Source: a virus (lineage: Duplodnaviria; Caudoviricetes). From it: a stretch of 64,000 nucleotides of DNA. The DNA is taken from IMG/VR virus record IMGVR_UViG_2706795985_000001, positions 26,553 through 90,552 of that record; one strand, given 5' to 3'. Shown in pieces: positions 1,288-46,538 of this stretch (within the stretch, counting starts at the first letter, position 1; each line of letters begins with the position of its first letter). Both the position numbers and the translations under genes were made by a program. The notes under the pieces are model-generated. The model was not told the DNA's origin. It saw nothing but the letters and a program-made list of their open reading frames with translations, and ran no database searches.

Positions 1288-1656
1288 ATGCTAAATCCTC
1301 CGTTACTCCTGACTGGCAGAGTAAAACTACAAGTTATCAGACGAGAGTCAGAGACTATTGTTAGAGGCCGTCCAGTTGACGGTTTGGAAAGTGTTGTTGA
1401 GGTTGTGTGCAATGTACAGCCTATCCTTAAATCAACTGACACTTCGATGCTACCCGAAGCTGACCGTTCCAAAGCTGCAATTAAAGTATACACAAATGGT
1501 GCAGCACTAAGGCAGAGAAAGGAAGGAGTTGGGGGTTGGGCAGCAGATAGATTCTATTGGCAACAAGAGTTATATGAGGTATTAAAAGTAATAAACTACG
1601 ACATAGGAATTTTGTCGCACTACAAGGCGATTTGCTTTAGGGTGGAGTTGACATGA
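1288..1656 (+). CDS. Head-closure protein
   Basis: GGAG SD; size and position in neck module; CNVQP motif. Confidence 0.65.
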   Translation: MLNPPLLLTGRVKLQVIRRESETIVRGRPVDGLESVVEVVCNVQPILKSTDTSMLPEADRSKAAIKVYTNGAALRQRKEGVGGWAADRFYWQQELYEVLKVINYDIGILSHYKAICFRVELT

Positions 1657-2408
1657 TTAACATTGGAGATACTTTTGGGTATTTAACTGTAACTTCAAGC
1701 ATACCAAGAGAGTTGCAAAGATATACAAAATCTGGGGCAAAGAATGGTAAGAGAGTTTTCTACGAATGTGCTTGTAGGTGTGGCAAAGCCTTGGAAGTTG
1801 ATATCTGTAACCTTAGGCTTGGAGGTAGCTGTGGATGTTTGAGGACCGAGAATGCCCAAATCACCAAAAAGGCTAAGTATGATTTGTCTGGTATGTCCTT
1901 CGGAAGGCTGACAGTTTTAAAGAGGGTTGAGCCTAAATCTAAGATGTGGTTATGCAGGTGCTCTTGTAAAAACCACGTAGAAGTACAAGGTGCGAGATTG
2001 TCATCTGGCGATGTGTCAAGTTGTGGCTGCCTAGCAAGAGAGACTAGCAAGTATAACGGTGAAGCCACCGGGCGTAAATTTAGAGCTTTAGCTAATTTAC
2101 CTCTAGACCAAAAAATAACAACAGATAACGAAGAGCAGCGTAAGTTGTTCAAGCCACTTTCAAAAGAAGTCCTCTTACGTGATGATTTTACCTGTTCTTG
2201 GTGCTCTAAGATTGGCGGGAATTTGAATGTACACCATATCGAGCTGTGGTCTGTAAAACCTGATCGCAGGTTCGATAGGACAAATTTGGTGACATTGTGC
2301 AAACCTTGTCACCTGACTGTACACAAGAATAACTTCCATGGAGAGCCTGACCCAATAATGAGTATCCTCCTTGAAGGCTACGCCAAGTACATGGAGGAGT
2401 TAACCTGA
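1653..2408 (+). CDS. Free-standing HNH homing endonuclease
   Basis: Two repeated FGxLTV..CxCxCG..SCGC DNA-binding modules, then RDDFTCSWC..LNVHHI..NLVTLCKPCH; inserted between neck genes with ATGA/TGATG overlaps. Confidence 0.85.
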   Translation: MINIGDTFGYLTVTSSIPRELQRYTKSGAKNGKRVFYECACRCGKALEVDICNLRLGGSCGCLRTENAQITKKAKYDLSGMSFGRLTVLKRVEPKSKMWLCRCSCKNHVEVQGARLSSGDVSSCGCLARETSKYNGEATGRKFRALANLPLDQKITTDNEEQRKLFKPLSKEVLLRDDFTCSWCSKIGGNLNVHHIELWSVKPDRRFDRTNLVTLCKPCHLTVHKNNFHGEPDPIMSILLEGYAKYMEELT

Positions 2409-2988: not shown

Positions 2989-4547
2989 ATGACCGTTCTT
3001 ACGGATATCATCGAAATTAACATCAGTAGAGAAACTGCTGCTGTTGCTCAAACAAACTTCAACGTACCTCTGTTCATTTCTGCACACACAAAATTTGCAG
3101 AGAGAGCGCGTTCTTACACAAGCCTTCCAGCTGTTGCTAATGATTTTGATCCTACAGACTCGGCATACATTGCTGCACAGAAGTTATTCAGCCAAACATT
3201 GACTCCGTCTAGAATTGTTATCGGACGTAGACTAGTGCCAAGCTCTACTGTAAGCGTCAGCACTGCCGGGGCAGGGACTTACACTGTCACCATCAATGAC
3301 ATACCTTTTGCTTTTGTAGCTACTTCGTCGAACACTTCGATTCAAATCGCCACAGGACTTAAAGCTTCATATGACGTTACCCCTGTAGCAGGAGTCACTG
3401 TCACTGATAAGCTTGACGGAACGCTCACTGTAGCTTCTACAGTCGGGTATTCCCTAGAGGTTTCTACAAATCTTAACCAAGCAAACTCGCCTTCTACAGA
3501 GTCTTGGGTAACTTCTGTTAACTCTGTAACAACAGTTGATAACTCTTGGTACGTGCTGACAATTGAATCTCATGCTGAGGCTGACGTTCTTGCAGTGGCT
3601 GCTCAAGTGGAAGGTATGAAGAAAGTTTTCGGAACCTCTTCTCAGTCTACTGATGTTAAGACTACTTCTACAACAGATACATTCTCAAAGTTGAAAGCTT
3701 TGGGCTATCAACGCACTTTCGGTGTCTACTCTGCCACTGCAGATAGTGAATACCCAGAAGTAGCTTGGGTAGGATACCAGCTAAAAGAACAGCCCGGTTC
3801 TAACACATGGGCTTATAAGTCTCTTTCTGGTGTAACTGTAAGCTCACTGAGCCCAACAGAATCTACCAACGTGTTAAACAAATCTGCATCTACTTATGAA
3901 ACTGTTGGTGGTCTGAACAGTACAATTGGTGCTAAGATGTTTGGTGGTGAATGGATCGACGTTATTATCTTTGTTGACTGGCTGGAACAGCGTATGAAAG
4001 AACGTCTGTGGAACCGTATGGCCAACAGCAAGAAAATTCCTTACACAGCAGCAGGCGCTGCAATCATCGAAGCTGAGATCCGTGCTCAGTTGAATGATGG
4101 TATTCGTGTAGGTGGTTTGGCTAACAGCCCAGCTCCAACTGTGTCTGTACCAGATGTTCTTACCTTGTCCACAAACCTACGTGCTCAACGTGATTGAAGG
4201 TATCACCTTTTTCAAGCTAGACTAGCCGGTGCGATACATTTTGTGAAGATATCAGGAACCGTTAATTAAAAGTGGCGGCTTTGTGGTGTGAACTACATCG
4301 AATAACTTATCTAATTCGGGGGATATCCTAACGTAGAGTCGAGGACAATCCTGAGCGAAGCTCAGAGCATTCTGAGAACGTGCAACGACTATCCCGCAAG
4401 GGAGTAGGGCCAAGTGGCTCGAAATGGTAAGGGGCTTCCAATTTAAGGAAGTTCGTGATATAGTCTATTCTGCATGGAAACATGCAGCAGTTCATAAGAG
4501 AACGAGTGTTGTCTAACGAGCAACGTTGAATGTAAAGAACAGTATAA
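2989..4547 (+). CDS. Tail sheath protein (exon 1 2989-4262, exon 2 4538-4547; apparent compensating indels near 4192 and 4210)
   Basis: Sheath motifs (WIDVIIFVDWL, KIPYTAAG). The C-terminal QARLAGAIHFVKISGTV is in the same frame beyond TGA 4195. Splicing gives ...GTVTV* (1284 nt, 427 aa). Confidence 0.85.
4263..4537 (+). mobile_element. Group I intron (subgroup IA2), ORF-less, in tail sheath gene
   Basis: P1 exon CCGU/GCGG with U.G at the splice site; starts UAAUU; P3 CUUAUC/GGUAAG; R GCAACGACUA; P7.1 UCCC-GCAA-GGGA; P7.2 GGGCC-AAGU-GGCUC; S GAUAUAGUCU; P9 CUGCAUG-GAAA-CAUGCAG; terminal G4537. Confidence 0.9.
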
Positions 4548-4560
4548 TTACGGAGACAGT

Positions 4561-5277
4561 ATGATAAATTACCTGTACAAGATTACTAACAAAGTTAATG
4601 GCAAGACTTACATTGGTATAACCAGAGACCCAGACTCAAGGAGAAAGCAACACCTTGTGTGGAAGCGTCAGTCTTCAAACTCTATTCTAAAACTCGCTAT
4701 TGATAAGTATGGAAAAGATGCCTTTGAATTTGAGATTCTTGTTGCAGGTGATTTATCTTACATAAAAGATTTAGAGATTAAAGCTATTTTAGCCTATGAC
4801 TCTCTAGCTGGCATTGGACATGGCTACAATATCCACTCAGGTGGTGGTCATAATAATGGCGGCGAACAAATAAAGTATCGTTCCGACGATAAACCAGTCT
4901 GCGCCTTTGGTTTCTGGTTTCCCAACGCCCGCACTGCCATCAAGTCTATTGGCATTAACAAGAAGACTCTGTATGCCCGTAGGGCAGCGGGAACTCTACA
5001 CCTTGAAGCTAGACCACTTAAAGCTATCGAACGCCCAAAGCGAGGCTCTGAGGAAGACACAGCTAATAGGTCAGCCTCTATGAAAGGTAAAAACTCTGGA
5101 GAGCGTAATGGTATGTTCGGAAGAAAGAATCCTTCACGCCACAGAGCAGTTACAGTGGAAGGTGTGCAGTACGAGTCAATCTCTGATGCAGTCAATAACA
5201 CCGAATACACAAAATCTCAAATCGAAAAACGTCTAGCCAAAGGTGTAGACGGATTCTCATACACACAGAGGAATTAA
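4561..5277 (+). CDS. Free-standing GIY-YIG homing endonuclease
   Basis: YLYKITNKVNGKTYIGIT, conserved R (RRKQH) and E (DLEIKAI), GYNIHSGG; NUMOD-type C-terminus. Confidence 0.9.
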   Translation: MINYLYKITNKVNGKTYIGITRDPDSRRKQHLVWKRQSSNSILKLAIDKYGKDAFEFEILVAGDLSYIKDLEIKAILAYDSLAGIGHGYNIHSGGGHNNGGEQIKYRSDDKPVCAFGFWFPNARTAIKSIGINKKTLYARRAAGTLHLEARPLKAIERPKRGSEEDTANRSASMKGKNSGERNGMFGRKNPSRHRAVTVEGVQYESISDAVNNTEYTKSQIEKRLAKGVDGFSYTQRN

Positions 5278-5281
5278 AAAT

Positions 5282-5806
5282 ATGAGCACACAAAGGCTCG
5301 CAACTTTTGCGCCCAACGACGTGAGTGTCATTATCACGCAGTCGAGCACAGGCATTGCCCACATTATCAGTGGCTACTCTGAGGAGTCCATCGTAAATAT
5401 CGAATGGACAAGCCCTCGCTACGCACTTTACACTGGTGCTGACAACACAGGTACACGTGTCTACAACGCAAGTAACTCTGCTACGTTGACAGTAAGCCTA
5501 CAGCAAACATCTGCTTCTAACGATGTCCTGTCTCAGTTGTTTAACAACGACGGACGTAACTCTGATGGACTTTTCTCTGTACAAGTAAAAGACGCCAGCG
5601 GTCGTTCTATCTACTTCTCTGATGATGCTTATATCGGTGTTCGTCCTAATGCTGGTTTTGGTAACAGTATGATGACACGTGATTGGGTTATTCAGGCATT
5701 CAACCTTGATGGCTACGCAGGTGGTAACGCAATTGTAACCCCAGAAGATCAGGCTACTATCGAAACTCTCGGTGGAAATCTGGCTGCTAAGTGGCTACAA
5801 CAGTAA
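5282..5806 (+). CDS. Tail tube protein
   Basis: Follows sheath; ATFAPNDVSVII start; terminator downstream. Confidence 0.7.
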   Translation: MSTQRLATFAPNDVSVIITQSSTGIAHIISGYSEESIVNIEWTSPRYALYTGADNTGTRVYNASNSATLTVSLQQTSASNDVLSQLFNNDGRNSDGLFSVQVKDASGRSIYFSDDAYIGVRPNAGFGNSMMTRDWVIQAFNLDGYAGGNAIVTPEDQATIETLGGNLAAKWLQQ

Positions 5807-45071: not shown

Positions 45072-46538
45072 ATGTTTTCTGAAAACTACGAAGAGACGGT
45101 AGCGATGGGGCTTCCGTTCGATTTTGATGCAAAGACACGTATTATGACTGAGACAGACAGTTACGCCACAGTCTACCCACAATTCTTGGAGTTCGCAGAC
45201 CAACAATTCGACAAACAATTCTGGACAAACACAGAAATGAAAGTTGAACTAGATCGTATGCAACTTCTGTTCGACCTAACTCCTGCACAACTGCACGCTG
45301 TAAAGTTTGTCTTACAACTGTTCTTGAAGTATGAACTGATTGTAGGTGAAGAGTTCTGGAACGGGTTGTTTATTAAAGTATTTCCAACTCCTGAAGCTAA
45401 AGCTATGGCTGCTGCATTTGCTGCCTTTGAGTTGCAAGTTCACGCTCGCTTCTACAACCAACTTAACACACAGCTCGGTCTAGATAAAGACGAAGACTAT
45501 CGTGCTTATGCTGCTAACCCTGAGTTGGCTGCACGTGTTGAGTGGCTTGAGAGTGTGTTGTCCGGCGAAGATAAACTACTATCTGTTATCGTATTCTCTA
45601 TGACTGAAACAGCACTACTCTTTGCCAGCTTTGCAATCCTGAAGAGCTTCCAGAGTAACGGTTATAACAAGATTGCTGTAACTGTTCGTGGAACAAACCA
45701 ATCTGCCATTGATGAGGATTAAATGTGAGTCCTCTTAAAACTTTTTGAATTGCTGGAAACCCCTTAGAGCTTGACGAACTACAACGTGGATGGTAACATC
45801 GAACGTGAATGTTAAAAATCGTCAGGATTGGGCAATCAGCAGGTAAGCTAAGCTCGAAACTGACTCCAAATATAGGAGGACAGTATGAGAAAATTTCATC
45901 CGATATTCACTAGATATTCAACTGATATAGACGGGAATGTCTAAGGTGGAAATCTGTTTGGTTGGAAATGGGCTTGGAAACTTCAACGACTATCCCATCT
46001 GGGAGTAGGATCAAGTGATCCGAAGCGGAAAGACGTGAAAGCGTATGATATAGTCTCCCCTCATGTGAAAGCATGAGCAGCACGTGAAGGTGCGGCACAA
46101 GACTAACGACCTTGTGTGAAGATTTGGTTACATGGATTCGCTGCTGCTTGGGCAATCAACCAACACTATAAAGAGTTGGGTAAGCCTCTACGTGAAGACA
46201 CTGTTCGTGTTGAGCAGATTTACAAGGCGATTCAATACGCCTATGAACATGAATGTTTGATCATTGATCTTGCATTCCTTGAGGACACACTAAATGGTAT
46301 GACCAAGGAAGACTTTAAAAACTATATCAAAGTTAGGTTGAATGTATTTGCAGAACGTCTTGGACTGGACCTTCCATTCCCTGAAGCAGAGTCTCCAATC
46401 ACTAAGTGGTTTGATCTTGGAACTGACTCTTACAAAATGGTAGACTTCTTTACTCCGGGGTTAGGACTAGAATATGAATCAAGTTGGGATACTACTGGCT
46501 TCATTCGTGGGTATATTGAAACTGGAGAAATTGAATGA
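45072..46538 (+). CDS. nrdB: Ribonucleotide reductase beta subunit (exon 1 45072-45719, exon 2 46128-46538; 352 aa spliced)
   Basis: Ferritin-like ligands E..VH..FY and TE..F; splicing restores IDEDLH; aromatic/acidic tail DFF...YESSW. Confidence 0.9.
45720..46127 (+). mobile_element. Group I intron (IA2) in nrdB with degenerate endonuclease remnant in P6
   Basis: P1 GAGGAU/GUCCUC; P10 AUGUGA/UUACAU; P AAUUGCUGGAAA; Q AAUCAGCAGG; R UUCAACGACUA; P7.1, P7.2; S GAUAUAGUCU; terminal G46127. Confidence 0.95.

Follow-up and report, generated by a model that had tools for sequence, protein, structure and literature searches.

The junction between the tail sheath and tail tube genes of a Pseudomonas phage holds two selfish elements side by side, a group I intron without an open reading frame (ORF) and a free-standing gene for a GIY-YIG homing endonuclease. 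We studied them in a window of 64,000 nucleotides, bases 26553-90552 of the 90,552-bp virus record IMGVR_UViG_2706795985_000001; positions are those of the window unless a locus label precedes them. Between 3700 and 5400 the window shares 98.6% identity with Pseudomonas phage vB_PsyM_KIL2 (Flaumdravirus), whose host is P. syringae pv. porri; the phage studied is a KIL-like (Flaumdravirus) Pseudomonas syringae myophage. The allele with both intron and endonuclease was read in two independent sequences, the window and KIL2, which are identical there, and was compared with the intron-less alleles of the Otagovirus phages 16Q, PHB09, psageK4 and phiPsa374.

Along the + strand lie sheath exon 1 (2989-4262), the intron (4263-4537), sheath exon 2 (4538-4547), a short spacer (4548-4560), the endonuclease gene (4561-5277) and a tail tube-like gene (KPP10_Orf10; 5282-5806; Pfam PF11681, phrog_280). 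The product of exon 1 belongs to the DUF3383 (phrog_205) tail sheaths, as judged from its matches to Pfam PF11863 (5.8e-29), to phrog_205 tail sheath (2.6e-110) and to a solved sheath homolog of 428 amino acids (PDB 9zdk_S, E 3.5e-156), and exon 1 is colinear with the 1284-nt sheath coding sequence (CDS) of intron-less relatives.

The intron in the sheath gene

The earlier note had proposed, from the letters alone, a complete intron core at 4263-4537, and the Rfam search bears this out: RF00028 matches 4254-4487 over its full model (1-253) with 71.9 bits against a gathering score of 50, and the same match is present in KIL2, in which the intron is 100% identical. The predicted fold recovers P1, P2, P3-P8 and P9. 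An insert of 31 nt after GACUA folds into two hairpins where subgroup IA has P7.1 and P7.2; this fits the P7.1/P7.2 pair of that subgroup, and the finer label IA2 is a candidate. In P1 (4259-4278), placed by the fold and by the register of a paralogous intron in terL (terL-I1), exon CCGU and intron UA pair with the guide UGGCGG, and U4262 forms a U-G wobble with G4275 at the 5' splice site; G4537, the terminal G, precedes the 3' splice site. Compensatory two-sided changes were seen in 20 of 65 pairs (in P1, P2, P8 and P9) in an alignment of just three introns, those of the sheath gene, terL-I1 and a tube gene from the uncultivated phage L016, which lends the fold modest support. The first P1 pair covaries an exon base with a guide base, being C-G in the sheath intron and A-U in terL-I1. 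The + strand of the 275-nt intron has no ORF of at least 40 amino acids. By these predictions, what splits the sheath gene is a complete, IA-like and hitherto unannotated group I intron.

The splice boundaries, U4262/U4263 and G4537/A4538, were set by comparison with the intron-less relatives. Joining U4262 to A4538 yields GGA ACC GT/A ACA GTA TAA, followed by TTACGG, and the ligated sheath gene of 1284 nt ends in GTVTV-stop, with the same length and C-terminus as in 16Q, PHB09, psageK4 and phiPsa374, whose uninterrupted genes end GGA ACx GTA ACC GTT TAA, then TTACGG. The proposal that this splice gives GTVTV-stop is matched by four natural Otagovirus genes. The junction predicted for the ligated RNA is ACCGU/AACAGUAUAA (ACCGU/AACAGU), and comparison of terL-I1 with intron-less 16Q gives the same register (AACGU/intron...G/AUAUGAC).

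The intron is placed 8 nt before the sheath stop codon, and its second exon is only 10 nt long: A ACA GTA TAA completes a valine and adds Thr, Val and the stop, as in the intron-less alleles. Relative to their A ACC GTT TAA there are two changes, both synonymous, and the shared TTACGG follows; we regard this synonymous-only change as weak evidence that selection acts on the spliced product. All eight complete homologous sheath genes that were examined (Otagovirus, Pakpunavirus and Y1-MI) share the GTVTV end, and the sheath of L016, a distant relative, ends differently, in GYLSV.

Other junctions were considered. A 5' splice site at U4263, paired with G4537, gives GTVNSIITETV-stop, which is unlike any homolog; joining U4263 to A4538 instead violates the terminal-G rule, and the calibration by terL-I1 favours U4262. 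A 3' splice site beyond the endonuclease gene was rejected because no second copy of the sheath end is found there.

Unspliced RNA would read GTVN-stop, as in the earlier note, since an in-frame UAA lies at 4267-4269 in the P1 loop; an in-frame stop shortly 3' of the 5' splice site is common in phage group I introns (PMC3984707). The KIL2 record reads its sheath CDS in this way, unspliced and ending at the TAA inside P1, and annotates terL and portal as joined pieces. One could suppose with the record that the intron is a non-splicing relic and that the sheath is made from unspliced mRNA, given that only the last residues differ (GTVN vs GTVTV). The paper describing the KIL phages makes no mention of introns, endonucleases or the sheath, and its proteomics confirmed ORFs and left the C-terminal sheath peptide unaddressed. 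However, the core is complete, with its U-G wobble and terminal G, exon 2 has kept its coding for TV-stop through two synonymous changes, and GTVTV holds in all eight complete homologs, though not in L016, so we consider a relic very improbable. Because the KIL2 sheath CDS stops inside an unannotated intron, the sheath C-terminus of the KIL biocontrol phages is probably mis-annotated by a few residues.

The endonuclease and its alleles without the intron

The endonuclease ORF encodes 238 amino acids and matches Pfam PF01541 (31.8 bits vs a cutoff of 22.6) and the homing endonucleases of phrog_314 (4.5e-35). The residues expected of an active GIY-YIG enzyme are retained across four homologs, in which the invariant positions include Y6, Y17, G19, R27, H31, E72 and N90; we take these to correspond to the conserved residues of I-TevI. 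The architecture appears I-TevI-like. As in I-TevI of the T4 td intron, an N-terminal GIY-YIG domain carries the same invariant residues, but the C-terminal NUMOD1 and I-TevI-type helix-turn-helix are weak in the window protein (NUMOD1, E 0.028; I-TevI_DNA-bd, E 0.043) and near threshold in its homolog from PAK_P4 (NUMOD1, 2.7e-4; I-TevI_DNA-bd, 7.8e-6, 26.1 bits vs a cutoff of 27). No zinc-finger linker, a feature of I-TevI, was detected. We assume by analogy that the enzyme would cut at a distance from its binding site, as I-TevI does.

I-TevI is encoded inside its intron, whereas the gene in the window lies outside. The gene begins 23 nt past G4537, as had been proposed, and 13 nt after the sheath stop. 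The spacer between stop and start contains TTACGG, the remnant 3' arm of a hairpin around the sheath stop codon (described below), and the Shine-Dalgarno sequence GGAG (4552-4555) of the endonuclease gene. No sigma-70 promoter with at least 9 of 12 matches was found for the gene in 4480-4560; a promoter annotated in KIL2, at window 4507-4536, is weak (TTGTCT-16-TGTAAA). The window gene, unlike its relatives, lacks a promoter-bearing leader. Two KIL-like contigs bear an endonuclease shortened to 102 amino acids, as is expected for endonuclease decay.

In PAK_P4, PaZq-1, JG004, MAG1 and other phages, a full-length homolog with 52-56% identity separates the sheath gene from the tube gene; their sheath gene is uninterrupted, and Rfam found no group I intron in the PAK_P4 and PaZq-1 loci scanned. 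Within Pakpunavirus the endonuclease is present in 15 of 124 records, and there are empty alleles, such as that of HenuyfyN19, with flanks 100% identical to PAK_P4. The Pakpunavirus cassette replaces 15 nt (CTAAGGACGGTCCTT) of the stop-codon hairpin, directly after ...GTGACCGT. Since PAK_P4 and the empty alleles are otherwise identical, the target in Pakpunavirus must include the replaced bases. In these comparisons the gene is patchily present at one site among close relatives, the mobility expected of a homing endonuclease.

Further alleles widen this picture. In Y1-MI a truncated copy of the endonuclease overlaps the sheath stop (L010:1303-1857), and its frame runs into a remnant of the old sheath end, GNVTV-stop and then TCACGGTTACATCC; read in this way, the remnant shows the cassette to have carried its own copy of the sheath 3' end. 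A truncated copy is present in the uncultivated phage L022 too. Among uncultivated phages with a DUF3383 sheath, the endonuclease lies downstream of the sheath gene (L016, L020, L022 and L065), upstream of it (L018 and L021) or on both sides (L019). Between the window and PAK_P4 the endonucleases are 53% identical, and the sheath and tube proteins 60% each; divergence near that of the neighbouring genes fits a long residence at this locus. Because the family sits intron-free at the sheath/tube junction in other genera, the endonuclease appears to be self-sufficient in homing, without need of an intron, and it probably arrived before the intron did.

A shared stem-loop and the proposed homing of intron and endonuclease

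In both Otagovirus and Pakpunavirus, the empty alleles fold into a stable stem-loop that presents the sheath stop codon in its loop. The Otagovirus stem-loop is GUAACCGU-UUAAUU-ACGGUUAC (16Q, L002:2053-2074) and that of Pakpunavirus is GACCGUC-UAAG-GACGGUC (PAK_P1, L014:726-743); the stems differ between the two genera yet remain paired. The intron site is at the foot of the 5' arm (GU^AACCGU), and in alleles with the endonuclease a cassette takes the place of the 3' arm. Within this one hairpin, the boundaries of the cassettes (ACCGT^ in Pakpunavirus and TTACGG^ in the window) are at distances of 6 and 16 bp from GT^AACCGT, the site of the intron. The insertion site had been called almost neutral; at the nucleotide level this does not hold, as it is part of a conserved stem-loop that forms around the stop codon of the sheath gene.

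The sequences that flank the two elements are substituted. The last 51 nt of exon 1 have nine substitutions private to the KIL lineage, compared with eight in the preceding 459 nt, which upholds the observation that the codons just upstream of the intron look odd. All nine are synonymous, in a tract (4213-4262; AGA, CTA, GCG, ATA, CAT, TTT, GTG, AAG, ATA) delimited by comparison with intron-less genomes, and several give rare codons, including AGA, CTA and two ATA. The same codons are quiet among the intron-less genomes, with 2-4 synonymous differences; gene-wide, the patch is only about twofold above the mean, and the signal is local. On the other side, codons 2-16 of the tube gene (5285-5329) have about 16 differences from KIL2 in 50 nt, compared with only 5 single-nucleotide differences in the 2270 nt to their left, which comprise sheath, intron and endonuclease. 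On its right edge the endonuclease cassette thus adjoins a hypervariable patch, the start of the tube gene. The substituted tracts fit either co-conversion from diverged donors or selection against cleavage.

An ORF-less intron at 4263-4537 and a free-standing endonuclease gene at 4561-5277 share one conserved region. We favour, with moderate confidence, the interpretation that the intron has been co-converted along with the endonuclease, by trans or collaborative homing, with both elements placed in the stem-loop of the sheath stop codon. We suggest the following sequence of events. The endonuclease family would be a long-term resident beside DUF3383 sheath genes. The enzyme would cut endonuclease-free alleles in or beside the stop-codon stem-loop, and recombinational repair would then copy its gene into them. 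In phages of the KIL lineage, a member of the intron family also present in terL and portal would have entered the same stem-loop and, lying 6-16 bp from the cassette boundary, would be inherited with the endonuclease in one co-conversion tract; it probably helps to split the endonuclease target. In the RNA, the intron would pair exon CCGU with the guide GGCGG, be cut after U4262 and release exons joined at the G4537/A4538 boundary, restoring the ancestral GTVTV. What the sequences show are the intron and its junctions, the endonuclease family with its intron-free alleles, and the substituted flanks; in vivo splicing, the place of cleavage, the sequence of arrival and intron-based immunity are predictions.

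Several observations weigh against this interpretation. The endonuclease is intron-free in every other lineage, so that a role of the intron in immunity is dispensable; since genomes with the endonuclease alone exist, immunity does not require the intron, and the Pakpunavirus cassette by itself disrupts the target. The endonuclease-first order that we infer is suggested by an unrooted comparison. Four introns and at least three endonuclease genes crowd the roughly 12 kb that begin at terL, which is upstream of the window, and end at the tube gene, a density at which chance adjacency is possible. Finally, an in-frame TGA at 4195-4197, 22 codons upstream of the intron, ends the sheath ORF listed for this record.

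The density of selfish elements leads to a different account, in which intron and endonuclease are independent neighbours and the intron arrived alone, by reverse splicing or by recombination from a paralogous intron into GAACCGU. The intron of the L016 tube gene, about 69% identical to the sheath intron, follows this same exon heptamer, and the introns of the genome exchange blocks: the sheath intron has exact blocks in common with terL-I1 (4319-4393, 75 nt; 4469-4506, 38 nt) and with the portal intron (4383-4425, 43 nt), a sign that intron copies of this genome have recombined with one another in recent history. Moreover, the endonuclease homes intron-free elsewhere, and further free-standing endonuclease genes are nearby (window 1653-2408; the 5' end of the KIL2 sheath gene). 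Against independence, the intron is only 23 nt from the start of the endonuclease gene, and any homing by the endonuclease would co-convert it regardless of collaboration; no more than 6-16 bp separate its site from the cassette boundaries, in the same conserved hairpin; and the window and KIL2 agree at 100% of positions in intron and endonuclease gene, whereas both flanks differ. We judge independent arrival unlikely.

A further possibility is that the intron once had an endonuclease ORF of its own and lost it, the free-standing GIY-YIG gene being a later replacement; such endonuclease turnover has been stated as a hypothesis (PMC10448857). The second terL intron of the same genome (terL-I2) still encloses an HNH ORF, and the sheath intron of L016 is followed by one. 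Yet no remnant of an ORF is left in the 275-nt intron, the GIY-YIG family has long been at the junction and has diverged in parallel with the flanking genes, the intron bears signs of a recent exchange of blocks within the genome, and no genome searched has this intron at the sheath site with an internal ORF. Replacement thus seems improbable.

For co-conversion of the intron with the endonuclease, collaborative homing is the best single label: the anatomy of the pair is there, and the defining property, cleavage of the intron-less allele by the endonuclease where the intron inserts, is predicted. This process is known from the group I intron of cyanophage S-PM2 psbA with F-CphI and from the DNA polymerase intron of T3/T7-like phages with its adjacent free-standing endonuclease (Zeng, Bonocora and Shub 2009; Bonocora and Shub 2009; reviewed in PMC3984707 and PMC10448857). 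In it, an intron without an ORF and an endonuclease encoded separately converge on one conserved site, and it is in this that the present locus resembles it. Here, as there, intron site and endonuclease cassette meet at one short conserved sequence. The differences are that the host gene is a tail sheath gene, that the site is 8 nt from its stop codon and in a hairpin rather than in a block of catalytic-site codons, that cleavage at the intron site is only predicted, and that related genera supply alleles with the endonuclease alone; in addition, the enzyme is of the GIY-YIG type, and F-CphI is Endo VII-like.

Trans homing, in which the T4 nrdB intron is mobilised by free-standing MobE (Wilson and Edgell 2009, PMC2790892), is similar in that a free-standing gene beside an intron-bearing gene would move an immobile intron by co-conversion. 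However, MobE is an HNH enzyme and the nrdB intron has a defunct I-TevIII ORF, whereas the sheath intron has no ORF and is 23 nt from the endonuclease gene. Intronless homing by the Seg-type GIY-YIG enzymes of T4, and the 'HEG islands' that bracket essential phage genes (PMC10448857), provide a third comparison: GIY-YIG genes between structural genes, patchy presence and substituted flanks are common to both, and in KIL2 and L019 the sheath gene is bracketed by endonuclease genes, as in such islands. What is added here is an intron within co-conversion range.

Three allele states were found among these phages: empty (Otagovirus and most Pakpunavirus), endonuclease only (PAK_P4-like phages, Y1-MI and several uncultivated phages) and endonuclease plus intron (the KIL lineage). 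Exact-pattern scans of viral contigs and metagenomes gave no intron-only allele and no further alleles. The number of introns in the genome, the shared blocks and the exon heptamer in common with the L016 tube intron together suggest that a resident intron family colonised the sheath site after the endonuclease. It is possible, and we offer it tentatively, that across these phages the locus preserves the steps by which a collaborative-homing pair forms, from empty to endonuclease only to endonuclease with intron, the endonuclease coming first and a resident intron then reverse-splicing into the GAACCGU site within the targeted stem-loop. If so, the locus would answer the question, raised in PMC10448857, of how collaborative-homing pairs originate, and the shared target would be a structure at the nucleotide level and not a conserved feature of the protein. 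Few phage cases of an ORF-less intron beside a free-standing endonuclease have been described, and with natural empty and endonuclease-only alleles in cultivable Pseudomonas phages, how collaborative homing arises and how it works can be tested directly.

Other mobile elements and the sheath frame of this record

The premise that introns are rare in structural genes fails for this genome, which carries five group I introns: two in terL (L007:1463-1714 and L007:2351-2573) and one in portal (L008:1296-1611), all upstream of the window, that of the sheath gene, and one of 54 bits in the gene for the small subunit of ribonucleotide reductase (nrdB; window 45710-46077, with exons 45072-45722 and 46116-46538). 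The HNH ORF of terL-I2 lies at L007 2600-3136. We considered terL-I2 as a second case of an intron with an outside endonuclease and rejected it, since 16Q terL continues for about 38 codons past the site, which makes the HNH ORF intronic. The KIL2 annotation seems to omit a third exon of terL, about 38 codons long.

The frame of exon 1 is broken in this record. Relative to KIL2, which reads CAACGTGTGATT...CACCTTTCAAG across the region, an alignment reveals paired indels (4189-4212): GT is missing at 4189/4190 (-2), and an extra TT stands in the T-run 4208-4212 (+2). The pair shifts seven codons out of frame, giving D*RYHLF (the asterisk being a stop) in place of VIEGITF, and thereby creates the in-frame TGA at 4195-4197. 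The replaced residues (V/I-I/F-E-G-I-T/E-F) and the next 25 are conserved across three genera. The resulting ORF of 402 amino acids is recorded on one contig only and the endonuclease protein on four, and the rest of the 15.8-kb alignment with KIL2 has few indels. The frame break is probably an error of the record, and otherwise a private lesion. Rescue of the TGA by recoding would need a +1 and then a -1 shift within 20 nt at non-slippery sites and is unlikely; with read-through, the conserved VIEGITF would be lost all the same. None of this alters how the intron is read, because the intron is identical in KIL2, whose frame is open.

Selfish elements that reshape the ends of genes are densely packed in the structural modules of these phages, which is relevant to annotation and genome comparison. 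In L016 (L016:20-4082) the order is a sheath exon, a group I intron followed by an HNH ORF, a sheath exon, a GIY-YIG gene of the same family, a tube exon, a related group I intron and a tube exon. In the window, a free-standing HNH endonuclease gene (1653-2408; phrog_374) stands between head-tail genes and is absent from KIL2. There, a different HNH endonuclease gene intrudes into the sheath gene at its 5' end (L001:80-830). This gene opens with the native ribosome site of the sheath and its first 9 codons, and the sheath restarts from a diverged copy whose start codon is ATA; the annotated CDS begins 82 codons later.

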